Origin: Eledone cirrhosa
Taxonomy: Eukaryota
Direction of reading: 5' to 3'
Length of the DNA: 64,000 nt
NCBI GenBank assembly: GCA_964016885.1
Contig: OZ024740.1
Coordinates: 374,666,001 to 374,730,000 of the forward strand
The position numbers were made by a program, and so were the translations under genes. Shown one piece after another: positions 13,397-64,000 of this stretch. Position 1 is the stretch's first letter. Every line of letters starts with the position of its first letter. A model generated the notes under the pieces. That model did not search any database. It was not told where the DNA came from and saw only the letters and a program-made list of their open reading frames with translations.

Positions 13397-13459
<63 letters not shown>

Positions 13460-13583
13460 GTATATATAATGTATTTTGCAATAGACACTATGCTTAATTA
13501 AAAGCATTTTGAAGACAGTATGCTATTGTTTTAGAGTAGTGACATATTCACTTACTTTAATCTCAGCAAGCAGGGGGAGATAA

Positions 13584-13628
13584 ACGCGACAAGGCCTTGT
13601 TTCTGCATTTGTTATGCTTATCAAGGCT
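13584..13628 (-). ncRNA. Hammerhead motif, U3-A8 variant
   Basis: Reverse complement: agcc|ttgataa|gcat aacaa atgc a|gaaac aaggcctt gtc|gcgt; palindromic stem III acaaggccttgt; stem I imperfect. Confidence 0.65.
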
Positions 13629-13767
13629 AACTACTCCCTCCCGTCTACTGAGATCGCTGATGTTATATTCTTATAGGCAACCGCTCTGTATAATCAGTTC
13701 TTTATTATTTACTAGAATGCAATAAGAATATAACATCAGCGATCTCAGTAGACGGGAGGGAGTAGTT

Positions 13768-13814
13768 AGCCCTGATAAGCATAAAAAACATGTAGAAACA
13801 AGGCCTTGTCGGCT
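13768..13814 (+). ncRNA. Hammerhead motif (core ctgataa, C3/A8 mismatch in this copy)
   Basis: agcc|ctgataa|gcat...atgta|gaaac aaggcctt gtc|ggct; stem I agcc/ggct, GUC site. Confidence 0.7.
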
Positions 13815-14114
13815 TTACCTCCCCCTGTTTGCTGAGATTAAAGTAAGTGAGTCTGTCACTACTCTAAAACAATAGCATACGGTCTTCAAAATGCTTTTAA
13901 TTAAGCATAAAGTGTATTGAAAAATACATTATATATACATTCATATATATATGGCTATTTCAGAGGTTCAATTCTAATATATATATATATATACGGCTTA
14001 TTTTAAAAATATCCAATACTAAAGCTACAACTCCATTATCCGGGAGCTTCCAACAGTAATAGTTGCATTATTTAAGCGTATGTCAATATTTATTTATAAA
14101 ACTGATCTATATTA

Positions 14115-14556: not shown

Positions 14557-14624
14557 TACTTTATTATATATATTTCGGATGTACTCTGCTGGTTTCTTCA
14601 GTACGTCCTCATCAGATAAAATAC
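14557..14624 (-). ncRNA. Type I hammerhead ribozyme, intact core
   Basis: Reverse complement: tattttat|ctgatga|gga c gtact...agtac a tcc|gaaat atat ata|ataaagta. Its 3' half recurs inverted at 14643-14722. Confidence 0.85.
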
Positions 14625-19827: not shown

Positions 19828-20415
19828 AGAATCATTTGATAAAATATATACAGTATTTCTCCTCCCAATAAGCATAATTAACCACACAAAACCTTAATTA
19901 AACGAGGCTATAAGTTTAAAATATACATATGAACAAACAATAGATAAATAAATGATAGCTATTTTATCCGCGATCAACAGCCAAAGAAGATTTACCCAGT
20001 AGTTCTAATAGCCCGTAGAAATTGATTAGGCATATAGCCAACCATATACAATTAGGTACAAAATCAAAGTTAGAAGAAAAATGTACATAAACATACCAAC
20101 ATTATGTTTCTACCCCATGAGGTTTCAATCGCTTTTTGGAAATATCCGATCATGGATAAATTCACGAGTTTCGAAATCATCAGGAAACAAACTCAATTGG
20201 AGAAATGTTTTTCTGAAATGATCCCTGCCAGAAACGAATTCAAAGTGGCTAAGAATTGTCACATGGCCAGTGGTCAAGTCAGAAAGCTTGCGATTGGTGC
20301 CTGATGGCGAGTAGGCTGGTTGCTAGAATGTGCAGCCGAATACTGCCTAAAGTGTTACTCAACCATATAGGAGTATATAAAATATATAGGTTTACATATA
20401 CATGAACTAGACAGA

Positions 20416-21055: not shown

Positions 21056-21106
21056 GGCTTCCTGATGATTTCTCCGGAGTGAAACAGTTCCAGTCCTGTA
21101 GAAGCC
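21056..21106 (+). ncRNA. Type I hammerhead, intact canonical core
   Basis: ggcttc|ctgatga|t ttc tccg gag t|gaaac ag ttccagtc ct gta|gaagcc; 6-bp stem I, c(UCCG)g loop II. Confidence 0.88.
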
Positions 21107-21139: not shown

Positions 21140-21340
21140 TTGAGTACCTTACTTACTATGGTTACCTCCGATTGAACCCGGGATAAACTTATATATATAT
21201 ATCTGAAAAAGTATGACGCCGACGTCAGAGCTCAAGCCGTTTCGACGGCTATTTCTGGACTATTTCCCACTCTACTACCCTAAGTGTTGAGTATACTGGT
21301 GCGTTATGGTCCATATGGTTCCTTACCACAATTCCTTTGT
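21140..21340. repeat. Mosaic of PLE pLTR terminal fragments, including the 3' half of an HHR (21216-21261, minus)
   Basis: 21140-21190 matches 60403-60452; 21205-21261 matches 60604-60657; 21266-21340 matches 39627-39700 and 18870-18945. Confidence 0.75.
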
Positions 21341-21579
21341 TATATATGTATATATATATATACATTTATATGCATATCCAGCTATATAGATATATTGCAT
21401 ATTGCATTATATTACGTATAAAATATTATACATATAATATAATCGTGTTCTCATATATTTCCAGCAAATGGTATTTACATCTGTAATAACTCATTAATTC
21501 TCACGTATATGCATGTACACATATGTGTTTATACTTATATACTTCTGTATATGTGGCTATGACGCATTTGGCGCATCGG

Positions 21580-27333: not shown

Positions 27334-30230
27334 ATACTTTGGGAGGGTCATGTTGCCAATAAGAAACACACGCACCAGGTGCTTTCACTTCAATTTATTA
27401 TAATCAATTTATAATAAATTTATAAATTTATAAATTTCTGGTTGGTTGGTTCCACAACCAGATAGTTGTTTATATATAGTCATAGTTCTTTCGTCACACA
27501 CTCTGTGACCTCTTCAGTGACTGGGGATTCTTTCTTTGTTTCTGTGCCTCTCCTTTGTTCTGTCCTACGCCATTTTGTTTCTGTGTGTGTGTTGTGTGCT
27601 CAGTCTGCGCAGGCGCCACATCCGGGTGTCTGTGTGTGTTTATGTTCATTTATTTATTTGTTTATTTACATGTTGTTGGTTGGTTGTTTGTTCTATGTGT
27701 GTGTGTGTTTTCATTTTGTCCTTAATTGTAAGTTGTGATGTTGCTGTTCCACTCATATTTTCTATTTAATTTTGGTTGTAATTCTTTTATGTTTATTGCC
27801 TCTCTAATTTGTCTAAACATTGCGTCTTTTCTGTGTGTAGATTCTATTTTATTTCTATGTTCTCTAATTTACCCTTGTGTTCTATTTTAGCATGTTGGTA
27901 GAGTACAGATGATTCTTTATTATCTTGAAGGTCTCGCCAGTGTTCATTTATCCATTCCCCTACACTACGAGCTGTCTCACCTATGTACACTATATTTTTT
28001 CTCTACATTGTCCTTCAGTACATCTTATGCTATACACTACATTTCTAGTTTTACAGTTAATATGGGGGCTTATTTTACAGGTTATACATTTCTTGCCTAT
28101 ACATGAGGGTCTTTGAAAAGGGTATGTCTTGCTAATAAGTGTTTTTTTACGGAGGTACCTGGTCTTTCTACTATCTTAATATTGAGTTTATGTTTATTTA
28201 GGGCCCTTCTAAATTTGTAAGCTAATTCACCTCTAGGGGTTGTATCGATGAACATTACACTCTGGTATTTATTGCTATCATACCATGAGTTTATTCTATT
28301 AGCCTTGTTCCTAGTTCTTTCTATTTTATTCCAAAATTTGCTTCTATACAAGGGGGGGGGTCCCATTTATGTCATTATTTACCATTTTTTCCCATTTGGT
28401 TCTGGCTCCTCTGATTTCATCTCTCTGATTGTAGCCAGAGAACTGCATACGGTGGATGAAGTGTTGTATGTGTCTCTTTAGTTCTTCGGGGTTGCACATG
28501 CGGGACACATTTCTCATCACCCGTACCAAATCCGCAATCAGTATGTTGATTTTGGTATGGTCCGAAACGGCCGATTTTCGGTGGATCAGATGTTTGGAAA
28601 TCATGGGTTTGGCATAATGGGAATGGAGGATTTGTTTTTTGTTGTTAATGGTATCTAACCAGAGCTCTGTGTCTAGTACAGGTTATCGATGGTTGGGGTG
28701 TTTACTTAGGTAGTCTATAGTAACTCTAATGCTCTGGTGGATGGAGTTTGCTATTTGCTGGATGCTTTCCATTGTGTTTTTCTCTAGTTTCTGACTGTTC
28801 TCTAGTGGGGGTGTATTAACTACGATGTTTATATCATCTACGTAGCGGGAGTACATTATCAGGGTTAAGGGGTCTTCTAATTGTTCTTTATGTTTAAGTT
28901 TAAGTCTACTGTCCCACATACCATGAATAAGTTAGCTATGTCGCCTGCAATGCTAGCACCAATGGCTGCTCCTTCCTCTTGGGCATATGTTTTTCAATTA
29001 AATTTGAACATATGTTCCTTAAGGGTTAGTTTTATGCTGGCCCCTACCGCATGTGCAATCATTTTCTTCAGTTCATCGTGGTTTTCGGGTGTCCGTATGG
29101 CTCTGGTCCACCCGTTCCATCTATCTGTGTGGGTTTTCTTGGCCATTGAGGTAATGGTAGGTGGTCTGTCTCTTGCTGGTCTGTAGGGCACAGGTTGCTA
29201 AGGTCATATGTGTCTAGGTAATTATTACTATAGCTAAGCTTAAGTAGGAATCCCAGCTTACTGGTATCAATCCCACGGAACTCAACATTGCTCTCAGTGA
29301 TCATTTCTAAGCATTTCTCCCCAGCAAAATCCACGTCAATAGATGGATACAGGGACAACATCCATACTGCCTATTATGCAGTTTGTTAAGTCCCCAGATC
29401 GGTTACTCACGCCGATTCTGCTGAGGATGTCCTCCGTGCTGTCACATACATCTGGGGACATTTCAATGATGGGGCGTATGCTCAGGGAGAGGAAGTAGGA
29501 CATTCTGTAGTTACTAGCAATGTTAGCTCCACACACTGGCCGTGTTGGTGGTCCCGCGACAGGGTCATAGCCCGTTTTATGGTCTTTTCGAAGCCCATAC
29601 AGCGCCGGCACGTCATTGTTCCAGGCCTGGAAGTTGTTGGCAGTCCTTTTGTTGTCTGTATTATATTCGTCCACATCACCATATGGGCATTGAGGGCTTT
29701 TTCTCTATCCTCATGCTCCTGTGGTGTTACCTCTCTTGTGTTAGTGATCTGGGGTTGCATTGCCTGGATGTAGTTTGGCAGGCTGTCAACCGACATTCTG
29801 CCAGACTTGTCTGTTGGAAAGCATGCTATCTCTCCATTACGTGAGCGCTGCATGAGCTTACGCAAGCCATTTGCAGATTTTTCTCCCAGTTGCTGGGCCT
29901 TCATTCTATTATGATTCTTGCTATACTGTTCTATAATATTTCTAAGTTCGTATCTAGCTATACTAAATTGTGCTTGTTTGTTCATCGACCTGCGACGGCA
30001 ATTGCGTGCGTTTGTTAAATGGTAAAGTCGTGGCGTGGACTCGTCGCAGGTCGAATGATTTATCGGAGGGATTATAAAACGTAGAGTTCCAGGCTGCTGC
30101 TTTATGTGTACTAGTGCTATTGTTATTGTTAGTTGTGTTGTTTCTATTTCTATTTCCACCAACAGCCTCATGGTTGTTTCTATGTCTCTCACAATTACTC
30201 CTGTCTCTTTCCACTGGCTCATTGTTGTTA
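27330..30230 (-). mobile_element. Near full-length frameshifted PLE (RT + GIY-YIG; Nematis-like, tentative)
   Basis: Collinear minus-strand ORF pieces: FPTDKSG (29482..30222), LYGLRKDHK/RPVCGA/GSMDV (29336..29674), SLYPSID, SRYVDD (28683..28919), then thumb and linker pieces homologous to ORF 51506..52609. Confidence 0.92.
27478..27522 (-). ncRNA. Minimal PLE-type hammerhead in the 3' pLTR
   Basis: Reverse complement: agtca|ctgaaga g|gtcac agagtgt gtgac|gaaa g aa c ta|tgact; 5-bp stems I and II, vestigial stem III; same strand as the PLE ORF. Confidence 0.85.
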
Positions 30231-30589: not shown

Positions 30590-31310
30590 AATTTTAGTAA
30601 GTAAGTTAATTTTTTAAATTTTTTAAAAATGTTCTTATTTTGCGTCTTTCATATTATTGTTCTGCATCGTCCTGCATTGAACCACCTAGGTACTATGACA
30701 TAACGTATGTATTTGCTAGCATTAATGTACATCTGTACGCATATGTTAGTAGATATACTAAATTCTCTATATTTATCTCCAAATTATTTATTTGTTGAGC
30801 AAAACTGCCAAAACCACTACTAATTCACTGGTGTGGTAGTAGGCTTCTGTCATCTTACCATCCCACTCCTTCCGACTAGCCTCAGTGTCACGTGATTGAT
30901 TCTTTAGAATCTGCCATTTGACCAGAGACAGCGAGCTTTTCAGTGCATGGAATCTAGTCCCCGCTAGCTGTTCCATCTACCGAATTATTATTATTTTTAT
31001 ATGAGTCCCCAGTGTCCGCGCATTGCCTGGAGACTTAGCTGAGAATAGACTCCCTGATGACGTAATGAATTCTCGACGGTTATATTACGTAACTGTCTTT
31101 ATCCCGTTACAGAAACTAATTAGTTGGAGTGAACATTTTAGTAAGTAAGTTAATTTTTTTAATTTTTTTTAAAATTTTCTTATTTTACGTCTTTCATATT
31201 ATTGTTCTGCATCCTCCTGCATTGAACCACCTAGGTACTATGACATAACTTATGTATTTGCTAGCATTAGTGTACATCTGTACGCATATGTTAGTAGATA
31301 TACTAAATTC
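30590..31310. repeat. Direct repeat of ~180 bp, period ~543 bp
   Basis: ttttagtaagtaagttaatttttt...gatatactaaattctct at ~30592-30767 and ~31136-31313. Confidence 0.9.
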
Positions 31311-32013: not shown

Positions 32014-32055
32014 GGCTCTGATGATCGTCAACCAGCGTGAAACAGACTGTTAGCT
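32014..32055 (+). ncRNA. Hammerhead motif, unit 2
   Basis: ggct|ctgatga|t cgt caacca gcg t|gaaac agact gtt|agct; near-palindromic stem III acagactgt. Confidence 0.75.
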
Positions 32056-32327: not shown

Positions 32328-32369
32328 GGCTCTGATGATCGTCAACCAGCGTGAAACAGACTGTTAGCT
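32328..32369 (+). ncRNA. Hammerhead motif, unit 3
   Basis: Identical to unit 2. Confidence 0.75.
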
Positions 32370-36719: not shown

Positions 36720-36768
<49 letters not shown>

Positions 36769-36859
36769 CGAAGGAAATGTGGTAAGGAACCAGGTGGACC
36801 ATAACGCACCAAAGTACTCAATGCTTAGGGTAGTAGAGTGGGTAATAGGAACCAGTAAG

Positions 36860-36953
36860 ACCCCGACGACTGAGCTCAAGCCGTTTCGACGGCTAATTCT
36901 GGACTAAATGAAAATTTATCCCGGTATTTAAATAGCCGAGCTTCTCAAGGGGT
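36860..36953 (-). ncRNA. Hammerhead, U3-A8 variant with long stem II (inverted pLTR)
   Basis: Reverse complement: acccc|ttgagaa|g ct cggcta...tagccg t c|gaaac ggc ttgagctca gtc gtc|ggggt. Confidence 0.8.
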
Positions 36954-37718
36954 AATTCCATATAAAGTGATTGTCACAAGGATTGGTCACAAGTTAGTAG
37001 TAATTCTGTGATAGCAAATTAGTGGGGGAAGGGGTAGCTAAACCTGCCAGTAGGAGAAACAGGGGAGGGGATGGAGTAGACCCATTCATGCGTTGGTGGT
37101 GCCGGCTACAGCTGGGCGTGAGGTCAAAGAAGATACTAGGGAAGGGAAGGGGGAGGAAGTCGAAACGGTAAGTAGAACAATGGAGGGTAAAAATATACTG
37201 AGAGTGAAGCGAATAAATGTAAAGAAAAAAAATAAATAAGCAATTTCTACGACCTAAGTCTCTCGCTATTGCTAGGCTAAATAAATAAATAAATAAATGA
37301 ATAATTAGATAAATAAAAAAAAATAAATAATTAAACTAGGTGGGACGGAATAGGAATGGACCCTTTTAATAGGTATAAGTACGTATATCATGCAGTGACG
37401 GGTCAACAAAGGGAGGCCAAAATACTAAAGAAACTACCACGAAATAATTAATAAAGGTTTCTACCCCGGGAACAAGGCCAGCAACCACCCAGTGCAGAAA
37501 AGTAAACTAGTACGAAATAATAATTCAGAGTCCCGAAAAAAATATACTAATGCTAACGCTACAAAAGTTCTTATACAAGCTACATGAAAGTTCGTACGAA
37601 GTAAAAATAGAATACGGAAAATTAATTCAGAATCCACCCCGCCACCATTAGCGGAACCAGCAGGCGACACCGCCGCTCACGCAATGTAACATGGTTCAAT
37701 CCTCCCCACAACGCAGAG

Positions 37719-38390
37719 GTGACAACTCCCATCGGGAAAATATTCTTTAGGCTCATTGAAAAACACTTCCCACTACAACACCGCTACCACAACATAATTA
37801 ACAAACACACCATCAAACTCTCTTACAGCACTACACCAAACTTCGCACAAAACATCGTCTCCTCCAACAAAAAAAAACTCAACCCCGATGGAAGAAATAA
37901 CCTAAATAGCAGTGGAGAGCAGACCGGTAGGTGCAACTGTCCTGATAGATCCATTTGCCCCCTCGACAACAGATGCAGAGACCGTAATGTGATCTACCAG
38001 TGCAACGTGAGGACGGACACCTCCAACAAAGCTTATATAGGATTAACCGCATGTGACTTCAAGACCCAGCTCTACCAACACAGACGTACCTTCCAAAACC
38101 CGTCCCGGCGTCACGCCACTACACTTTCGGGCCACATATGGGACCTCAAGGACAACAACATCACCTATGATCTCACTTGGAGATTACTGTCCAGAGCGAA
38201 CTCTTACACGGGAGGACGCCGTCCTTGCAATTTATGCACGGAGGAAACTTTACAAATGCTGTTTTCAACGGACCAACTTCTAAACAAGAAAGATGAGCTG
38301 GTTACTGCATGTAAACACAGATTGCGTAGGACTTACCTCGCCCTCAAACCCCATAAAGACCCGGGGTGGGGGGGTAGACTAGGGCTATAA
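37719..38390 (+). CDS. PLE linker + GIY-YIG endonuclease, open frame of the 5'-truncated copy
   Basis: 223 aa; CNC..CPL..C linker, NVIYQC..KAYIGLT, CNLCTEE, LLNKK. Confidence 0.8.
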   Translation: MTTPIGKIFFRLIEKHFPLQHRYHNIINKHTIKLSYSTTPNFAQNIVSSNKKKLNPDGRNNLNSSGEQTGRCNCPDRSICPLDNRCRDRNVIYQCNVRTDTSNKAYIGLTACDFKTQLYQHRRTFQNPSRRHATTLSGHIWDLKDNNITYDLTWRLLSRANSYTGGRRPCNLCTEETLQMLFSTDQLLNKKDELVTACKHRLRRTYLALKPHKDPGWGGRLGL

Positions 38391-39148
38391 CTCCCCTCTA
38401 GCCGATTTTGTAATGGGTAACCCCTGCTTGCCAAGGGAGACGTAAGATCTTATTTTATATTCTTTTATCGCTTCCTCTATATTTCCTTCTTCCCCCATCC
38501 CTCCCTAGTCCTTCTACCCCAGTTCTTTTTCTTTGTCGGCGTCTTTTTCTCGCCCACCCGACGTAGCCCCTCGGCCCCTTGTAGCCTCAGTACCGCCACC
38601 CCCTCCCCTAGTCTATGTTAGATTTGGAGGACTCCGCTTTCTATAGCAGTTGTGTTAGACCTCGGATACTTGCCCCCTTATCCGATGCTCCCCCTTTTTT
38701 CCGTGCCTTCTATATTGCTTAGTGGCATCTCTACTTTATTTCTCGTTTATTCAGTTTTTCTTTCTTCTTTTTTCTTTTAGACGGGGTGGATTCTGAATTA
38801 ATTTTCCGTATTCTACTTTTACTTCGTACGAACTTTCATGTAGCTTGTATAAGAACTTTTGTAGCGTGGCGGTACCCTTAGAGTTAGCATTAGTATATTT
38901 GTTTCGGGAGTCTGAATTATTATTTCGTACTAGTTCACTTTTCTGCACTGGGTGGTTGCTGGCCTTGTGCCCGGGGTAGAAATCTTTATTAATTATTTCG
39001 TGGTAGTTTCTTTAGTATTTTGGCCCCCCTTTGTTGACCCGTCACTGTATGATATACGTACTTATACCTATTAAAAGGGTCCATTCCTATTCCGTCCCAC
39101 CTAGTTTATTTATTTATTATTTTTTTATTTATTTATCTAATTATTCAT

Positions 39149-39183
<35 letters not shown>

Positions 39184-39515
39184 GCCGAGCAATAGCGAGA
39201 GACTTAGGTCGTAGAAATTGCTTATTTTTTTCTTTTTTTTCTTTACATTTATTCGCTTCACTCTCAGTATATTTTTACCCTTTATTGTTCTACTTACCGT
39301 TTCGACTTCCTCCCCCTCCCCTCCCTAGTTTCTTCTTTGACGTCACGCCCAGCTGTAGCCGGCCCCACCAACGCATGAATGGGTCTACTCCACCCCTTCC
39401 CCTTTTTCTCCTACTGGCAGGTTTAGCTACCCCTTCCCCACTAATTTTCCATCACAGAATTACTACTAACTTGTGATCAATCCTTGTGACAATCACTTTG
39501 ACCATATATGGAATT

Positions 39516-39609
39516 ACCCCTTGAGAAGCTCGGCTATTTAAATACCAGGATAAATTTTCATTTAGTCCAGAATTAGCCGTAGAAACGGCTTGAGCTCAGC
39601 CGTCGGGGT
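39516..39609 (+). ncRNA. Hammerhead, U3-A8 variant with long stem II (internal pLTR)
   Basis: acccc|ttgagaa|gctcggcta...tagccgta|gaaac ggc ttgagctca gcc gtc|ggggt; about 190 nt upstream of the ATG at 39795. Confidence 0.8.
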
Positions 39610-39794
39610 CTTACTGGTTCCTATTACCCACTCTACTACCCTAAGCATTGAGTATTTTGGTGCGTTATGGTCCACCTGGTACCTTACCACATTTCCTTCG
39701 TTATCTAGCTCTTATTCCCGTAGTAGAGCACTTTCCGACCCTACCACGCCGTATCCAGATTTTTCCGCTAAGCTCAATTTCTTTCACCCGCACA

Positions 39795-41975
39795 ATGCGA
39801 AAACACAACATCGACTTCTCTACCAAGAACATCCCAATCCCACCGAAAAAACTTTATCTTCGGATGCTCACGCAAAAAATCGATCTATTTGCAAAAAGAC
39901 TTAGATGGAGAACCTTCTTCTACAACAGATATTGCGACAATCAGGACTTCGGCACCAAGGAGAGATTCGGATTTATTACCTACAAATCTCCCCATCCCCC
40001 GAACCCTTTGCTCTCACCCTTCGAGAATGACCTCTTCCAAATGGTCAAGAACATCAATTTCAAACCCAGACAACCGATTCCTACAAAAACTCTGTAGCAA
40101 CTTAACAGAGTATGATAACACCAATGAGATCATGGTGCATTCGGATAAAACTGGGAACCTATAATTTGTCAACCCTGACAGATACCACACACTGATCAGG
40201 AGCAGCCTAAACTCCACCTATAAAAAGGCCAATCACTCATGGATCGAGGACATAAATCGAGATGGACAACAAATTATCTCCAGCCTCGGGGTCGCCGACC
40301 AAACGGAACCCCTAGACCCACGGACACCCTACTTCACACTGAAAGACCATAAATCCGATTTCGACCGTAAACCCTCTATCAGGCTTATTAAACTAAGGAA
40401 GTCCGACATCGGGAGAATCAGCAAAAAAATCCTAGACCGCGTGATAACAAAAGTCAAGCAACACGCCCGACTTAGCCTATGGATCAACACCCAGGATCAA
40501 CATATCATGGTTCAGCATCATGGTTCAGCAATATGGAGGATAAACAAGACACTAAATTCATCGAGTTGACATAGAGAGCTACTATGCTTCAATCACCTTA
40601 CCGCTACTTACTGCTGCCTTGGACTTCGCCGAAGCACTTGTGCCCATCACCGACCAGGAAAGAAAAATCATCCGCCACGCCAGGAAGACAGTCTTACTCT
40701 TTGACAATTCCAAATGGATAAAAAGAGCTCCCGACTCACCCTTCGACGTCAGCATGGGCGCTACGGATTCGGCGGAAGTCACAGATCTTATAGGATTATT
40801 CCTAATAGCCAAACTCACCGATACGTTTCCTGCATTCGGTGGTGGATTATACCGTGATGATGGGCTCCTTACCCTTAAAGGGTAGACCCCAGTAGTACAG
40901 ATCGGGTCCGGAAACAATTAATCAGCTTCTTCCGCGACTGGGGATTTAAAATAACCCTACAAACGTCCCTGACCCGAGTAAACTTCCTGGACGTTAACCT
41001 CGACATCGAAAACGACATGTACTACCCATACAGGAAACCTAATGACAACCTGCACTTCATTCACCGCCGTTCAAACCATCCTAGGAACATCATCAACAAC
41101 CTGGTCAAAAACATCTCCCTCCGCATATCCCGTTTGTCAGCTAATGAGCAGATATTCGATGAACATGCGCCTTATTACAATCAGGCCCTCAGGCGGAGTG
41201 GTTTCCGGGAGGAAATATCCTACTGTTCAGCTCCCATTAGCGGAACCAGCAGGCGACACCGCCGCTAACGCAATGTAACATGGTTCAATCCTCCACACAA
41301 GGCAGAGGTGACAACTCCCATCGGGAAGATTTTCTTTAGGCTCATTGAAAACACTTCCCACTACAACACCGCTACCACAACATAATTAACAAAAATACCA
41401 TCAAACTCTCTTACAGCACTACACCAAACTTCGCACAAAACATCGTCTCCGCCAACAACAAAAAAGTCAACCCCGATGTAAGAAATAACCTAAATAGCAG
41501 TGGGGAGCAGACCAGGAGGTGCAACTGTCCTGATAGATCTATTTACCCCTCCACAACAGATGCAGAGAGCGTAATGTGATCTACCAGTGCAACGTGCAAC
41601 GTGAAGACGGACACCTCCAACAGAGCTTATATAGGATTAACCGCATGTGACTTCAAGACCCGGCCTTACCAACACATACGTACCTTTCGAAACCCGGCCC
41701 GGCGTCACGCCACTACACTTTCGGGCCACATATGGGACCTCAAGGGCAACAACATCACATATGATCTCACTTGGAGATTACTGTCCAGGGCCAACTCTTA
41801 CACGGGAGGACGCCGTCCGTGCAATTTATGCTCGGAGGAAACTGTACAAATGCTGTTTTCAACGGACCAACTCCTAAACAAGAAAGATGAACTGGTTACT
41901 GCATGTAAACACAGATTGCGTAGGACTTAACTCGCCCTCAAACCCCAAAACGACCCGGGGGGTTAGACTAGGGCT
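39795..41975 (+). pseudogene. PLE RT-GIY-YIG ORF disrupted by stops and frameshifts
   Basis: ORF pieces 39648..40097, 39889..40164, 40619..40885 (YRDD), 41017..41268 and 41601..41930. Confidence 0.92.
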
Positions 41976-42735
41976 ATAACACCACACTTGCCGATTGTGT
42001 AATGGGTAACCCCTGCTTGCCAAGTGAGACGTAATATCTAATTTTATATTCTTTTATCGCTTCCTCTATATTTCCTTCTTCCCCCATCCCTCCCTAGTCC
42101 TTCTACCCCAGTCCTTTTTCTTTGTCGGCGTCTTTTTCTCGCCCACCCGAGGTAGCCCCTCGGCCCCTTGTAACCTCAGTACCTCCACCCCCTCCCCTAG
42201 TCTATGTTAGATTTGGCGGACTCCGCTTTCTATAGCAGTTGTGTTAGACCGCGGATACTTGCCCCCTTATCCGATGCTCCCCCTTTTTTCCGTGCCTTCT
42301 ATATTTCTTAGTGGCATCTCTGCTTTATTTCTCGTTTATTCAGTTTTTCTTTCTTCTCTTTTCTTTTGGGCGGGGTGGATTCTGAATTAATTTTCCGTAT
42401 TCTACTTTTACTTCTTACGAACTTTCATGTAGCTTGTATAAGAACTTTTGTAGCGTGGCGGTACCCTTAGAGTTAGCATTAGTATATTTTTTTCGGGACT
42501 CTGAATTATTATTTCGTACTAGTTTACTTTTCTGCACTGGGTGGTTGCTGGCCTTGTGCCCGGGGTAGAAACCTTTATTAATTATTTCGTGGGAGTTTCT
42601 TTAGTATTTTGGCCCCCCTTTGTTGACCCGTCACTCTATGATATACGTACTTATACCTCTTTAAAGGGTCCTTTCCTATTCCCTCCCACCTAGTTTATTT
42701 ATTTATTTTTTTTATTTCTTCATCTATTTATTCAT

Positions 42736-42770
<35 letters not shown>

Positions 42771-43084
42771 GCCTAGCAATAGCGATAGACTTAGGTCGTA
42801 GAAATTGCATATTTTATTTTTTTTCTTTACATTTATTCGCTTCACTCTCAGTATATTTTTACCCTTCATTGTTTTACTTACCGTTTCGACACCCTCCCCC
42901 TCCCCAGTATCTTCTTTGACCTCACGCCCAGCTGTAGCCGGCACCACCAACGCATGAATGGGTCTACTCCACCCCCTCCCCTTTTTCTCCTACTGGCATG
43001 TTTAGCTACCTCTTCCCCACTAATTTTCCATCACAGAATTAATTAACAATAGCATTTATTTATTAACAATAGCATTATTAATTA

Positions 43085-51505: not shown

Positions 51506-52609
51506 TTGTTTGATTTAGAACGTAGCACGATGGAAAGCATCCAGCAGATAGCTAATTCCATACACCAGAGTATAACTGTAACTATAGACTTCCCTTCCAA
51601 ACACCCTAACAATAGACTACCTGTATTAGACACAGAACTCTGGATTAACACTATAGACGAGAGAGCCCAAATTCTCCACTCACACTATGCTAAACCCATG
51701 GCCTCCAAATACCTGATACTCAAAAACTCAGCAATGTCCAGTAGTGCTAAGTTTAATATTCTGATCGCAGATTTGGTACGAGTGATGAAGAATGTGTCCA
51801 GCATGTGCGACCCAACAGAAATGGAAGGACACATCCAACACTTCATCAACCGCATGCAGTTCTCTGGCTACAACCAAAGAGACAGAGTCAGAGTATACGA
51901 AGGAGCCATGGAAAAGTATAAGACCCTCATAGAACTGGACATGAAAGGAATTTGCCCACTATACAGGAGCAAATCATGGAATAGCTTAGATAGGGCTAGA
52001 CATAAGATAGGGAAGGCCACATCATGGTACGACAACCAGAGATATCAGAGTGTCATGTTTGTGGACGCCACCCCTGGAGGGAAATTAGCTAACCAGTGTA
52101 GAAAGGCCCTGAGAAAGACCCACTTAAAAATAAAGGTGGTAGAAAAGCCAGGAACCACCATAAAATCCCTGATCAGCAAAACCTACCCTTTTAAGAAAAC
52201 CCACTGTACCAATAGGAAATGTATCATATGTAAGGTGAACCCCTGGATAAACTGTAAGACTAGAAACGTAGTCTATAGCATAAGATGTACAGAGGGTACT
52301 TGCAGAAACACGACAACAACATACATAGGTGAGACAGCTCGTAGCATAGGTGAAAGGATAGACCAACACTGGGGGGAACTAAAAGGACGAAAAAACGGGT
52401 CAGTACTATACGAACATGCTAGACAACAACATGACGGTAACATAGACAACATAGAAATTAGAATAATATCTAAACATAGGAATGACCCAGCAGATAGGCA
52501 AATCAGAGAGGCCAGTGAAATAGAAATTAGAAGACCAAAGCTAAACAGAAAGAATGAGTGGAACAACAACAACACCCAAACAAACAACACTGACCTAAGA
52601 GAAGTATAA
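51506..52609 (+). CDS. PLE RT thumb + Cys-rich linker + GIY-YIG endonuclease (uninterrupted, 5'-truncated)
   Basis: 367 aa; LPVLDTELW, HYAKPMAS, CTNRKCIIC..C, NVVYSIRC..YIGETAR..ERIDQH, RQIREA, PKLN. Confidence 0.88.
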   Translation: MFDLERSTMESIQQIANSIHQSITVTIDFPSKHPNNRLPVLDTELWINTIDERAQILHSHYAKPMASKYLILKNSAMSSSAKFNILIADLVRVMKNVSSMCDPTEMEGHIQHFINRMQFSGYNQRDRVRVYEGAMEKYKTLIELDMKGICPLYRSKSWNSLDRARHKIGKATSWYDNQRYQSVMFVDATPGGKLANQCRKALRKTHLKIKVVEKPGTTIKSLISKTYPFKKTHCTNRKCIICKVNPWINCKTRNVVYSIRCTEGTCRNTTTTYIGETARSIGERIDQHWGELKGRKNGSVLYEHARQQHDGNIDNIEIRIISKHRNDPADRQIREASEIEIRRPKLNRKNEWNNNNTQTNNTDLREV

Positions 52610-53194: not shown

Positions 53195-54111
<917 letters not shown>

Positions 54112-55011: not shown

Positions 55012-55536
55012 ATGAAGTATATTCTTGAAACACACAAGATCCTTAAAAGTAAAAGACAACCCAAATCACTAAAACGCATTCTCACTGGACCAAATATACC
55101 CAAACCAATCCTCAACCCTACAGTTACCAAATGTGGTAGAACAAACTGTGGAACGTGCCTCTACCTCACTGAAGGACAAACATTTACATTTAAAGATGGC
55201 CAAACATTTACAGTAAAAAACAATTTCACCTGCAACTCGGAAAACTTGATTTACGCAATAACTTGCGGTGGGTGCAAACACAACTACATAGGACAGACGG
55301 GCACCTCATTACGCAAAATAATGACCATCCACCGCCAACAAATCCGGGACGCTAACACAAGAAAAATCCACTTGAGTAGCCATATTGCGAACTGCGCAGG
55401 AATGACACTACCCAACTTTAAAATCTTCCTCTTCTACAAGTGCTCAGATTCGTTCACACAGCAACAAAGAATAAACAAAGAAAATCTATTCCTTAACAAA
55501 TTTAAACCAAAACTAAACGGGTTATCACACCAATAG
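55012..55536 (+). CDS. Neptune-like PLE Cys-rich linker + GIY-YIG endonuclease (5'-truncated at a (TA)n tract)
   Basis: KCGRTNCGTC, FTCNSENLIYAITCGGCKHNYIGQTG, HRQQI, KE..F.NKF.PKLN; homologous to 43597..44010. Confidence 0.85.
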   Translation: MKYILETHKILKSKRQPKSLKRILTGPNIPKPILNPTVTKCGRTNCGTCLYLTEGQTFTFKDGQTFTVKNNFTCNSENLIYAITCGGCKHNYIGQTGTSLRKIMTIHRQQIRDANTRKIHLSSHIANCAGMTLPNFKIFLFYKCSDSFTQQQRINKENLFLNKFKPKLNGLSHQ

Positions 55537-56664: not shown

Positions 56665-56743
<79 letters not shown>

Positions 56744-56794
56744 TTGTATATAAATAAGAGGGTGTTAAAGTTTGCTTGAAGCATTGTGAAATGT

Positions 56795-58656
56795 GTAAAA
56801 TATGTAGTTAAGAAAGCCACAACAATGCAGAGGGAAATCTCGAGGTAGCAAGTGAATGATAGATAAGAGAAACAGGAGAAAGTGAAAATTGAGAGAGAGA
56901 AAGAAGAAAACAAAACAAAGGTAGAAGGGTTACCGTAGTGGAGATTTAATCCCAATATTTCGGGCTCGCGCCCATCAACGGGGGAAAGTTCCAAAAGGGG
57001 GGGGGGGACAGGCCAAGCGGAGAAAGTTGTGATGTCGTTAAGACAGGAATGCCGTTATGGGGAGAAAATTATTTAAAATTTAAACGAGGGAAAGAATGCG
57101 CGTGCGCGTGATAGGCTGTGGCAAAAACTACTGACCAAATGGGTTAAATCAAGAGGGTGCGCTAGCGTGTGAAAGCCGTAAAATATGTGTCTGTAAATAT
57201 ATGTGTGTGTAACTGTGTGTGTATAAGTGTAAGTGTGTATATATGTGAGTGTGTGTGTGTGTGAAGGATAGTGGGCTGTAGAAGCTGGAAATCAAAGGGT
57301 GTGAAAGGTGGTAGGTTGTAAAACATGTGTGCGTGTATAAATATAGATGTGTGTGTGTAAGCGTATGGGTATACATGTGTGTGTAACTGTGTGTGTATAT
57401 GTGTGAGTGCGTGTGTGTGTGAAAGATAGTGGGCTGTAGAAGCTGGAAATCAAAGGGTGTGAAATGTGGTAGGTTGTAAAAACATGTGTGCGTGTATAAA
57501 TATAGATGTGTGTGTGTATGCGTATGGGTATGTATATACGTGCGTGTGTGTGAAGATAGCAGGCCGTAGGCTGTGACTGGTCACTATGGTTAATAAGTTT
57601 TACATAGGTAGCACCATCCGACCCCTACATGTTCGTATCAAGGAACATATCAACACCAACGCATCTTCCTTCCGTAAACATATCCTTAAATGCGGAAACC
57701 CACAGGGTAGACCCTTGGTCACAGTCCTAGCGACTGAACGCAGCATCGGATCCTTAAGGATAAAGGAAGCACTTGTTATTAAGAACCTCAGACCCCCACT
57801 TAACAACCGGGCTGAGAGAAATGAGCTGACACGGCTAACTTAACCATAGTGACCATTCACAGCCTACGGCCTGCTATCTTCACACACACGCACGTATATA
57901 CATACCCATACGCATACACACACACATCTATATTTATACACGCACACATGTTTTTACAACCTACCACCTTTCACACCCTTTGATTTCCAGCTTCTACAGC
58001 CCACTATCTTTCACACACACACGCACTCACACATATACACACACAGTTACACACACATGTATACCCATACGCTTACACACACATGTATACCCATACGCTT
58101 ACACACACACACATCTATATTTATACACGCACATATGTTTTACAACCTACCACCTTTCACACCCTTTGATTTCCAGCTTCTACAGACCACTATCTTTCAC
58201 ACACACACACACTCACACATATACACACACTTATACACACACAGTTACACACACATATATTTACACACACATATTTTACGGCTTTCACACGCTAGCGCAC
58301 CCTCTTGATTTAACCCATTTGGTCAGTAGCTTTTGCCACAGCCTATCACGCGCACACGCATTCTTTCCCTCGTTTAAATTTTAAATAATTTTCTCCCCAT
58401 AACGGCATTCCTGTCTTAATGACATCACAACTTTCTCCGCTTGGCCTGTTCCTCCCCTTTTGGAACTTTCCCCCATTGATGGGCGCGAGCCCGAAATATT
58501 GGGATTAAATCTCCACTACGGTAACCCTTCTACCTTTGTTTTGTTTTCTTCTTTGTCTCTCTCAATTTTCACTTTCTCCTGTTTCTCTTATCTATCATCC
58601 ACTTCCTACCTCGAGATTTCCCTCTGCATTGTTGTGGCTTTCTTAACTACATATTT

Positions 58657-58660
<4 letters not shown>
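56795..58660. mobile_element. 1.9-kb fold-back: ~800-bp inverted pLTRs around a GIY-YIG fragment
   Basis: Arms 56795-57592 and 57841-58660 are near-identical reverse complements, each with an internal ~140-160-bp tandem repeat. Confidence 0.92.
57586..57843 (+). pseudogene. PLE GIY-YIG endonuclease 3' fragment
   Basis: FYIGSTIRPLHVRIKEH...HILKC...LRIKEALVIKNLRPPLN. The ATG derives from the inverted arm. Confidence 0.82.
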
Positions 58661-58743
<83 letters not shown>

Positions 58744-58837
58744 ATAAATATATAATATGAAGACTAAAATCCAAAGAGCCCTCGATGACGATAAATATAT
58801 ATCAAATATATAAGAACAGTAGAGCAAATATTTATTA

Positions 58838-60589: not shown

Positions 60590-62930
60590 ATTCTATATAT
60601 AGGAAAAAGTATGACCCCGACCGCAGAGCTCAAGCCGTTTCGACGGCTATTTCTGGAATAAATTAGAACTTTTAGCCTGGCGAATAAATAGCCGAACTTT
60701 TCAAGGGGGTACTTCCTTATATGGGAAGATTGTGTTTGTCAAGAGGTTTGGTTAAAATTTGTTGTAAACACAAATAAGTCTATCATGGCATTTGGTGGGT
60801 GGTAGGGGTGGCTAAACTTGCCTGCGAGTGAAGCGGTCAAGCGTTGAAAGTGATATGTATACAGCAGAATCTAAGGATAGTGTGTGAAGTGAGGGAGGGA
60901 CTATAGAATAGGTAAATCGAAAGAGAGTAGGAGACAATAAAAGAAACTAGAAAGAAATAAAATAAAAAATAAAAGAATATATAAAATTAGATAGTGAGAA
61001 ATGAATAAAGTAATCACAATGCTATCTTACAATTACAGGTTAATAAGTTGAGAATATAAAACACTTATAGAAATTACAAAACAGATACAAACTTAAAGGG
61101 GTTTTTAACACATCTGCTATAAGTAATTAGTCAAACGTATTCGGCCAATTCTATCTTAAAATAACAGGGGTGGGGTAACTGATGCTACAAGGCCAGATGG
61201 GCTGCATCGGGGTAGGCGAAAGAGGAAAGCAGACGAGGAAGAAAACAGGGGTTGGAAGAAGTGATAGGATGAGGCACCAGTAATAAGTAGACAAAGAGCA
61301 AAAGAAAAGAGGTACATTTACCTATGTAAGCTGGGGTTTCCCCTAACTTATTCGGCAAGTGTGTTTGTGTGTGGGTGGGGTGGTGTGGGGTTATCAGCCA
61401 TTGTCTACCCACTCGGGTCGTTATAGGGTTTGAGGGCGAGGTAAGTCCTACGCAATATGTGTTGGCATGCAGTTATCAGTTCTTGTTTAGGAGTTGGTCC
61501 TTCGAAAACAGCATTTGTAATGTCTCCTCCGAGCATAAGTTACCCGGACGGCGTCCTCCTGTGTGAGAGTTAGCTCTGGACAGTAATCTCCAAGTGAGAT
61601 TGTAGGTTATATTGTTATCTTGGGGGTCCCAGATGTGGCCCGAAAGTGTAGTGGCATGTCGCCGGACCGGGTTTCGGAAAGTGTGTCGGTGTTAGTAGAG
61701 CCGGGTCTTGAAGTCACACGTGGTTAATCCTATATAAGCTTTGTTAGAGGTGTCCGTCTTCACGTTGCACTGGTAGATCACGTTACATTCTCGGCAGTTG
61801 TTGTTGAGGGGGCACGTGGATATATCAGGGCAGTTACACCTCCTGGTCGGCTCTCCAATGATGTCTAGGATATTTCTTCCATAGGGGTTGAGTTTTTTTT
61901 TGTTTGAGGAGACGAAGTTTGTACGAAGTTAGGTGTGGTGTTGTAGGAGAGTTTGATGGTATTTTTGTTGATTATGTTGTGGTAGCGTTGTTGTAGTGGG
62001 AATTGTGTTTTGAGGAGTCTCAAGAAGATTTTCCCGATAGGTGTTGCCACCTCGGCATTGTGGGGAGGATTGAACCATGTTACGTTGCGTGATACGCGGT
62101 GTCGCCTGCTGGTTCCGCTAAGGGAAGCTGGATAAAAGGATATTTCATCTCGGAACCCACTCCGCTTGAGGGCCTGGTTGTGATGAGTCGCGTGTTCGTC
62201 GAATATCTGCTCATTAGCGGACAAACGAGATATGCGGAGGGAGATGTTTTTAACCAGGTTATTGGTGATGATTCTAGGATGATTAGAGCGGCGGTGGATG
62301 TAGTGCAGGTTGTCGTTTGGTTTCCTGTATGGGGAGTACAGATCAGTTTCGAGGTTAGGATAACGTTATGGAAATTGACTCGGGTTAGGGACGTTTGTAG
62401 GTTTATTTTAAATCCCCAGTCCCGGAAGAAGTTGATTAGTTGTTTACGGACCCGGTCTCTACTACTGGGGTTGTACACTTTGAGGGTGAGGAGCCCATCA
62501 TCCCGGCACAATCCACTGCCGAATGCAGGAACCATTTCGGTGAGTTTAAATAGTAGGAATAATCCTTTAAGATCTGTGACCTCGGCGCAATCTGTTGCGC
62601 CCATGCTGAGGTCGAAGGGGGAGTCGGAAGCTCTCTTCATCCACTTGGAGTTGTGGAAAAATAGAACTGTCTTCCTGGCGTGGAGAATGATATTTCTTTC
62701 GTGGTCAGTGATGGGCGTGAGTGTTTTTACAAAGTCCAAAGCTACCGTAAGGAGCGATAAGGTAATAGATGCATAGTAACTCTCTATGTCAAACTGGATG
62801 AATTTTGTGTCTCGTTTGTCAACCATATTCCTGAACCTTGAGATTACTTCCTGGGTGCTGACCCATAAGCTAAGTCTCACGTTTTGCTTAACTTTTGGTT
62901 AAACTCGGTCTAGGAACTTTTTACTGATTC
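60590..62930 (-). mobile_element. 5'-truncated PLE of the YRDD/CxC lineage with 3' pLTR
   Basis: ORFs 62080..62880 (QFDIESYY, MGATDCAE, LCRDDGL) and 61865..62224. The GIY-YIG region at 61450-61850 is homologous to 37930-38350. Confidence 0.92.
60614..60710 (-). ncRNA. Hammerhead, U3-A8 variant with long stem II
   Basis: Reverse complement: cccc|ttgaaaa|g tt cggctattt...aaatagccg t c|gaaac ggc ttgagctct gcg gtc|gggg. Confidence 0.78.
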
Positions 62931-63177: not shown

Positions 63178-63292
63178 TTATATTATCGACCTCGAAAGGA
63201 TGAAAGGCAAAGTTAACCTCTGCGAATTTGAACTCGGAACGCAAAGGGCCATAACTATGCTGCAAATCATAGTGTCTGACGCTCTACCGATT
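63178..63292 (-). mobile_element. Partial tRNA-derived SINE
   Basis: tatcgacctcgaaaggatgaaaggcaaagttaacctc...atttgaactc. Confidence 0.82.
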
Positions 63293-63307
63293 TCATATTA
63301 CCTACTC

Positions 63308-63421
63308 TAGGAATCAGGACCCCGACGGCTGAGCTCTGGTCATTTCGACAGCTAGATACGAACTCTGTCGGATCTAGCTTTCGAAAGAGCCGGAGATCAG
63401 CAGTCGGGATGCTGACTCTTA
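63308..63421. repeat. Imperfect hairpin made of two HHR 3' halves
   Basis: cccgacggctgagctctggtcatttcgacagctagat / atctagctttcgaaagagccggagatcagcagtcggg. Confidence 0.75.
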
Positions 63422-64000
63422 TTCTATATATAGGAAAAAGTTTGACCCCGACCGCAGAGCTCAAGCAGTTTCGACGGCTATTTATGGACTAAATTAGAAT
63501 GTATAACCTGGAGAATAAATAGCCGAACTTCTCACGGGGTACTTCCTTATATGGGAAGATTGTAGTTGTCAAGACGATTGGTCAACATTTGTTGTAAACA
63601 CAAATAAGTCTATCATGGCATTTGGTGGGAGGTAGGTGTGGCTGAACTTGCCTGTAGAACAATGAGGGAGTGAGTGGAGCCGGTCAAGCGTTGAAAGTGA
63701 TATGTATACAGCAGATTCTAAGGATAGTGTATGAAGAGTTGAAAAATTGTTCTGGAGAAAGTGGAGGAGGGTTGTTATAGAATAGGAAATTCGAATGAGA
63801 GTAGGAGACAATAACAAATAATAGAAAGAAATATAAAAAATATATAAAATTAGATAGTGAGAAATGAATAAAAAAAAACAAAAGCAGTAGGGTCTAGAAA
63901 CAGCTGCTATGATTAGTAGGTGTTGCTTGTACGGCCAAAACTGTAGAATAGGTTAATAAGTTGAGAATGAAAAATACTAAATAAGAAATTGCAGAAGTGG
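63421..64000 (-). mobile_element. PLE pLTR copy (homologous to 60590-61050) with HHR at 63445-63540
   Basis: Long match to 60590-61050. HHR reverse complement: acccc|gtgagaa|gttcggcta...tagccgtc|gaaac tgc..gcg gtc|ggggt (position 3 mutated). Confidence 0.82.

Follow-up and report, generated by a model that had tools for sequence, protein, structure and literature searches.

A type I hammerhead in a Hydra-clade Penelope-like element of Eledone cirrhosa: genomic copy ends point to cleavage and to a likely start inside stem II

Copies of a Penelope-like element (PLE) in the genome of Eledone cirrhosa begin at two nucleotides of the hammerhead ribozyme that the element carries: most at an initiator-like motif inside stem II, and a minority at the predicted cut site. 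In the explanation that we consider best, and to which we give a probability of roughly 0.6, this type I hammerhead likely cleaves in vivo and transcription starts within its stem II, so that the RNA of the element would have half of the ribozyme at its 5′ end and a cut 3′ end. We examined a stretch of 64,000 nucleotides (hereafter the window, whose numbering is used throughout) together with copies of the element from across the genome; the features of the window are collected in Table 1.

Results

Features of the host element

Judged by its sequence, the element that holds the hammerhead in its pLTR is a young and very abundant member of the Hydra clade of PLEs, a clade defined by an RWK-type motif, DKT, a CxCx5C linker plus, at the C-terminus, a GIY-YIG domain without CCHH, with CxxC and CxH near E and N (PMC8557442). 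The 717-aa ORF that is intact in younger copies has the corresponding motifs (RWR, SDKT, CNCPDRSIC, VIY..YIG, CNLC and CKH), and its protein, compared by eye, resembles the Hydra proteins in File S4 of that study. Structural hallmarks of the clade are likewise present, namely (TA)n insertion, a pLTR, a partial tandem, an inverted copy and a tail. Pfam and PDB sequence searches with the ORF returned zero matches. A non-LTR retrozyme would consist of short non-coding tandem units with one hammerhead each, whereas the unit here is 3.5 kb long and encodes the 717-aa protein. A first look at the genome (3.0 Gb) gave 2142 candidate motifs, and open frames of about 784 codons are numerous in it.

Remnants of other PLE ORFs lie in the window at 51530-52609 (+) with 27735-28776 (-), at 55012-55536 (+) and at 29482-30222 (-); at 55012 a GIY-YIG match stays below threshold, and this remnant resembles an N-terminal (Naiad-type) endonuclease. 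Separately, an inverted repeat of about 900 bp, with 91% identity and internal direct repeats, occupies 56687-58754.

Table 1. Positions of the element, its hammerheads and related features in the window
Feature	Position	Strand	Remarks
5′-truncated upstream unit (ORF end, 3′ UTR, hammerhead, tail)	37645..39707	+	pLTR of a partial tandem
Hydra-clade PLE ORF, RT and C-terminal GIY-YIG	39795..41950	+	frameshifts and stops in this copy
3′ UTR of downstream unit	41951..43041	+	ends ~50 nt short of the start of the next hammerhead
Inverted 5′-truncated copy	36762..37641	-	ends at the 39707 equivalent in (TA)n
Type I hammerhead, focal copy	39516..39609	+	private C-to-A change at 11.1 (39581)
Focal stem I	39516-20/39605-09	+	ACCCC/GGGGT
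Focal core	39521-27	+	UUGAGAA, U3 and A8
Focal stem II region	39528-39581	+	54 nt between core and GAAA
Initiator-like TTTAGTC in stem II	39561..39567	+	A39564 is the start of most genomic copies and the likely transcription start
Focal GAAA	39582-85	+	
Focal stem III	39585-39603	+	6 bp, ACGGCU/AGCCGU, around GAGCUC
GAGCTC palindrome, loop III	39592..39597	+	constant across all subfamilies, three flanking positions variable
Predicted cut site	39604..39605	+	GUC is 39602-39604, C17 is 39604
Two fixed copy 3′ ends, 39624 and 39707	39624..39707	+	each followed by (TA)n; PLE 'tail' of 83 nt
Hammerhead copy	36860-36953	-	core intact; inside the inverted copy 36762..37641
Hammerhead, subfamily C	60614..60709	-	56-nt stem II region; G.G mismatch in stem III
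Hammerhead, subfamily C	63445..63540	-	G at position 3, a damaged core
Head-to-head mini-insertion, subfamily C	21210..21346		one arm starts at the 39563/4 equivalent, tail in the other arm
Head-to-head mini-insertion, subfamily E	63292..63425		arms start at the 39564 and 39567 equivalents

A type I hammerhead with a large stem II region

The focal sequence has the make-up of a type I hammerhead: a Y3-U-G-A-N-R8-A core, GAAA, UH and three helices, with stem I open. A sequence-only reading of the window had located four copies (36860-, 39516+, 60614- and 63445-) and placed the GUC about 190 nt ahead of the ATG of the PLE ORF; all four are found where it put them, and the distance from C17 (39604) to the ATG (39795) measures 191 nt. 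The '~55-nt stem II' of that reading needs qualification: the region from core to GAAA is indeed 54-56 nt long across hammerheads, but it comprises the pair G10.1-C11.1, a small internal loop, a helix of 6-9 bp and a divergent top, not a helix of 55 nt. Three of the four window copies (focal, 60614 and 63445) carry damage. The focal hammerhead is slightly decayed, with a private C-to-A change at 11.1 (39581) seen in 1 of the 94 copies of its subfamily, A54. Two partial copies, both head-to-head mini-insertions, are also present in the window.

Four homologous copies of a repeat are by themselves no test against chance. We compared the 172 full hammerheads (94 in group A54, 12 in A56, 41 in C and 25 in E) contained among 470 distinct 3′ halves pooled from all fetched loci; these sets were gathered by similarity and pattern searches and are a non-random sample, group E having been found via a pattern in which the 3′ arm was fixed and the 5′ arm free. 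Three pairs in stem II are compensatory, changing on both sides between groups: firstly, pair 2 is A-U in E and G-C in A and C; secondly, pair 7 is U-A in C and G-C in E (U.U in A); thirdly, pair 8 is A-U (or G.U) in E and U-A in A and C. Stems I and III are near-invariant and hence uninformative. The U3-A8 combination occurs in 94/94 A54 copies and in 39 of the 41 C copies, while G, A, C or U can all stand at core position 7. Because of this covariation between subfamilies, and because copies end at the cut site (below), we accept the hammerhead as real and, on this comparative evidence, its fold as under selection.

Folding energies say less, with weak z-scores of -0.75 to -1.7. The minimum-energy fold of the focal copy is an alternative to the hammerhead in which the GAAA is trapped in a hairpin loop; for the youngest subfamily, the minimum-energy fold is the hammerhead. 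In the alternative fold, at 39576-39590 of the window, the 3′ arm of stem II pairs with the 5′ arm of stem III (AGCCGU/ACGGCU). Zero hammerhead models were among the 143 Rfam matches at E<=1 across the window, and the long stem II insert probably defeats these models. A C3.A8 mismatch was found in 10 of the 12 copies of group A56, whose hammerheads may cut slowly or be cleaved in trans. Members of A56 include L126, L132 and L360, the last of which has an A-tail at the cut site.

The GAGCUC of loop III is unchanged across groups while its flanks vary. By calculation, a duplex of stem III has an energy of -25 to -31 kcal/mol, against -10 to -14 for two hairpins, and dimerisation via the palindrome is on this modelling energetically plausible. 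Minimal, dimer-dependent PLE hammerheads combine a palindromic loop III with a stem III that is absent or 1-2 bp long; the palindrome is present here, and stem III has 5-6 bp. The palindrome could serve in dimer pairing or as a downstream promoter element.

A loose descriptor scan of the window also returned hammerhead-like motifs with CUGAUGA at 14565-14615 (-), 21062-21100 (+), 31054-31125 (+), 32018-32051 and 32332-32365 (+), and 20111-20183 (-) with 16620 (+). Some have a palindromic stem III, and they probably belong to other PLE families; only the motif at 31054 folds well (z -3.3), but not as a hammerhead. An unrelated hammerhead-like motif with U3-A8 and a palindromic stem III (CAAGGCCTTG) lies at 53373-53410 (-) and 53732-53769 (+), within a large inverted repeat (53196-53976) that has a relative at 13405-13993.

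Copy ends at the predicted cut site

We searched the genome for the exact sequence from G39605 preceded by two non-native bases, and used the same design at 39602 as a control. The cut-start pattern gave 342 matches and the control 18. On inspection, 19 of 30 cut-start loci were true junctions and 11 were G-run expansions, while 9 of 10 controls looked true, which scales to about 217 true junctions at 39605 as compared to 16 for the control. At 7 of the 30 inspected loci, both arms terminate at 39605, separated by a single base.

The other side of the cut has left its own ends. Oligo(A), sought within three bases of C17, gave five matches at four loci, and GGGGTC follows the tail in 4/4. Another search, for C17 with a start of the stem II class no more than 30 nt behind it, gave 23 matches at 20 loci. 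Five leave the element exactly at C17: three have the 41-nt leader only, and at the other two, L366 and L377, a full hammerhead ending at C17 is joined via a short tail containing A to a 39564 start. The remainder leave it at G39605 or later.

Because ends fall at exactly 39605 and A-tailed ends fall at C17, cleavage in vivo is indicated, and from these copy ends we hold it highly probable that the hammerhead cuts in the animal. Stalling of the enzyme at stem III was considered as a source of the 39605 ends and fails to explain the A-tailed ends at C17. A poly(A) hexamer in stem II was also discarded: AATAAA occurs in one minor variant only, about 50 nt from the cut, and is absent in C and E.

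Most copies start inside stem II

A random sample of 80 evenly chosen 10-kb stretches yielded 47 pieces with a readable 5′ end, representing 28 insertions. Eighteen of the 28 start at 39559-39570, seven start elsewhere in or just after the motif and three run through the whole hammerhead, a clustering with p about 1e-11 against a uniform spread; 17/28 are head-to-head pairs. None of the 47 pieces starts at 39605. Cut RNA is thus a minor template, start-class ends forming the larger class and cut-class ends the smaller. These counts refine the earlier proposal that cleavage at the GUC sets the ends of a cut-to-cut unit RNA: the pile-up of cDNA ends at 39605 and the oligo(A)-tailed 3′ ends at C17 support the first part, and the unit RNA is supported as a template of the minority, most copies starting 41 nt earlier and the 3′ ends of insertions being set by two priming sites.

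The most frequent start is 39564/39565 in subfamilies A, C and E, and the exact start pattern for subfamily A occurs at 1784 places. TTAGTY or TCAGTY stands at the pile-up in all groups, 18 nt before the GAAA, while neighbouring positions change. The upstream shoulder of the distribution is partly alignment over-extension, and the upstream edge is sharp after its removal. From this pattern we consider it likely that stem II holds a transcription start or promoter. The TTAGTY region is initiator-like; GAGCTC lies at +29 to +34 from A39564, where a downstream promoter element would be expected, and the match to the DPE consensus is poor. Three further candidates were rejected. A TATA-like box at -29 is present in A and C and absent in E; the apparent peak of a second initiator at 39560 is mostly alignment over-extension into the inverted partner; and pieces that retain both A and G, with no constant exon upstream of them, speak against a splice acceptor at TTTAG. 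In a plant retrozyme with its hammerhead downstream of the start, the 5′ end is lost and the RNA is untranslated (PMC12029980). A transcript that starts within the ribozyme would keep its cap.

Tandem runs of a 47-54-nt leader from the 39564 start occur at L382-L384 (C1632) and L374-L375, with 14 copies in L382. They may have arisen because the 5′ end of the RNA was copied again and again, or as a micro-satellite formed later.

Copy 3′ ends and a proposed replication cycle

With a query upstream of the motif, 41 of the 45 ends beyond 39400 fall at 39624 or 39707 and none at the cut. We read 39624 and 39707 as two start sites of reverse transcription. Contigs of one sample (three runs, the kind of sample unrecorded, with no bearing on expression) have ends at 39624/39704 and opposite-strand joints at 39564/5.

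Taken together, the ends suggest a cycle of four steps. Firstly, Pol II would start at A39564 in the upstream repeat, giving a leader that carries the 3′ half of the ribozyme only, so that the cap would be kept and the RNA would be translatable. Secondly, the next complete hammerhead would cut after the GUC, as the copy ends strongly suggest, leaving a 3′ end that is sometimes oligo-adenylated; further cuts in arrays would release exact unit-length RNA from G39605. Thirdly, the protein would nick both (TA)n strands and prime cDNA at the observed ends, 39624 and 39707, near the RNA 5′ end. Fourthly, as the structure of the insertions shows, most cDNAs extend for only about 60/143 nt (start class) or 20/103 nt (cut class) before they end, and are joined head to head; long copies would form when the reverse transcriptase occasionally transfers from the 5′ end of the RNA to its 3′ end. 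We put the odds that this transfer is the main route to long copies at about even.

In retroviruses and LTR elements, priming near the RNA 5′ end yields a short run-off (strong-stop) cDNA that is transferred to a redundant 3′ end. By analogy, the promoter may split the ribozyme such that strong-stop cDNAs cross a 41-nt, ribozyme-defined redundancy in a retrovirus-like manner, with the palindrome pairing the RNA ends and the 3′ ribozyme trimming the leader in trans; we offer this fuller version tentatively, its chances being somewhat short of even. The likeness is one of analogy and not of membership: compared to R-region transfer in retroviruses and LTR elements, the process here would be target-primed, without a tRNA primer, and its 3′ end would be made by a ribozyme and not by a poly(A) site.

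Alternative origins of long copies and of the stem II ends

Scarred junctions were found at six loci, as against thousands of seamless ones (2142 first-look candidates), and seamless junctions are equally compatible with uncut RNA or circles. Long copies could thus derive from RNA whose last hammerhead stayed uncut, primed at the downstream tail, with cleavage as a side path and with the short copies made by priming on the 5′ tail copy or from short-copy transcripts. Nearly all long copies and all array junctions have a seamless hammerhead, as would be expected of uncut RNA; L351 begins at the cut site and continues through one unit and an intact second hammerhead; and unprocessed RNA is the main in vitro substrate for the anole element (PMC11167929). 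On the other hand, six loci record a crossing from the RNA 5′ end to the 3′ end at C17, and arms of more than one unit on both sides of a single insertion (the C19, C13 and C3 arrays) need either repeated crossing or a long uncut read-through RNA. We regard this origin as unlikely, and less so than the alternatives below.

Nine array loci, picked from a protein search, each hold 2-4 full units, which are 3528-3548 bp long and have seamless hammerheads. Within an array, 0-8 substitutions separate the units, as against 1-92 between arrays, and in 7/9 arrays private variants are common to all units. Such arrays would be expected if cut unit-length RNA were ligated into a covalent circle and reverse-transcribed by a rolling circle, as Cervera and de la Pena proposed in 2014 (PMC4209133), with palindrome dimers helping, and the energetic preference for the stem III duplex over two hairpins would also suit it. 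Most cDNAs, however, stop at 39564 or 39605, whereas a circle offers no end to stop at. Moreover, at L359 and L385 the cut is where one arm ends, and an A-tail carries the other arm across it, an arrangement more easily reconciled with a jump on linear RNA than with a circle, and one four-unit array looks partly duplicated at the DNA level. We consider the circle improbable.

Both four-unit arrays (L141-L146) alternate ABAB at variant sites (1 and 4 sites). A two-unit (dimer) template was rejected as the source of this pattern, the partial fifth unit of the testable array carrying the wrong alleles; later DNA duplication or assembly is likelier. Where two array arms meet at L145-L146 (C1, about 91489200-91492700), a 55-bp piece of the ORF is repeated in tandem about 65 times.

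Lastly, the pile-up at 39564, which sits in a structured region, might arise in stem II of a longer RNA through stalling of the reverse transcriptase, a branch point or cutting by a nuclease, and a stall could explain why L376, L378 and L379 hold a second piece again spanning 39564-39604, but we give this very little credence, since the position goes with the TTAGTY sequence and not with the structure (A and E are folded differently there), the enzyme meets and passes stronger G-C helices first, the ends are sharp upstream once over-extension is removed, and G precedes A39564 in 24/49 non-T cases among the first 100 matches listed (p=0.017), a weak hint of a copied cap.

Discussion

The sequence-only reading had rightly noted the U3-A8 core and the self-complementary loop III, but had called the hammerhead unusual; both have been described before for PLE hammerheads (PMC4209133). 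Natural covariation to U3-A8 has been published (PMC3088659), and the PLEs of Schistosoma have it in about 1,300 hits (PMC4209133); a palindromic loop III with dimers is the standard account of PLE hammerheads (PMC4209133, PMC6765202). With the hammerheads of Hydra-clade PLEs (Craig et al. 2021, PMC8557442) the present one shares its type I topology, its place on the sense strand of the pLTR region, insertion into (TA)n, partial tandems that include a truncated copy in inverted orientation, and the protein motifs of the clade. By contrast, all 26 rows of Hydra hammerheads in File S2 of that study (26/26) have C3-G8, a loop II of 3-10 nt and a loop III of 1-3 nt, where we find U3-A8, a stem II region of 54-56 nt, a stem III of 5-6 bp and a loop of 7-9 nt. 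The PLE hammerheads, minimal and variant, that Cervera and de la Pena described in 2014 (PMC4209133) share U3-A8, the conserved G10.1-C11.1, a palindromic stem/loop III with a proposed dimer and a proposed role in processing precursor RNA; here, however, stem III is long enough for a monomer and the stem II region is much larger. The authors of that paper state that they had no in vivo evidence, whereas here copy ends appear to record the cut.

A parallel for the 3′ ends is PAc, a Poseidon element from Anolis (Frangieh et al. 2024, PMC11167929), in which two internal reverse-transcription starts downstream of the hammerhead make the genomic tail and in which both strands of AT-rich targets are cut and extended. 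The tail of PAc is 30-40 nt long and lies in the ORF, as compared to 83 nt in the 5′ UTR here, and the RNA-seq of that study had zero ends at the cut site, where cDNA ends fall in our element; according to the same source, hammerhead mutants left in vitro insertion unaffected. For the putative promoter, Penelope of Drosophila virilis has an internal, TATA-less Inr/DPE promoter in its pLTR (Schostak et al. 2008, PMC2377424). There, transcription starts 46 bp upstream of an intron that meets helix I with its 3′ end, and so upstream of the whole ribozyme (PMC4209133), whereas the start that we propose lies inside stem II, and no signature of an intron was seen.

In a literature search outside the subscription journals, neither PLE strand transfer nor a start site within a PLE hammerhead was the subject of any paper listed. 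Work by Lunse et al. 2017 on PLE hammerhead variants may list a similar variant. In the papers so listed we found no counterpart to the large stem II, to copies that mostly start within it, or to a genomic record of cutting.

The role of the hammerhead in PLEs has been described as unclear (PMC8557442, PMC4209133), and the single element that has been reconstituted yielded no sign of cutting in vivo (PMC11167929). In this genome the ends of RNA at the cut site are recorded in hundreds of copies, which supplies exact nucleotides for testing, and a young family with many intact ORFs is suitable material for such tests, so that a long-open question of replication becomes testable. The cycle proposed here offers one account of the pLTR, the partial tandem and the head-to-head inverted repeat that define PLEs; if it is true, strand transfer across the 41-nt redundancy would account for pLTRs, tandems and head-to-head repeats alike.
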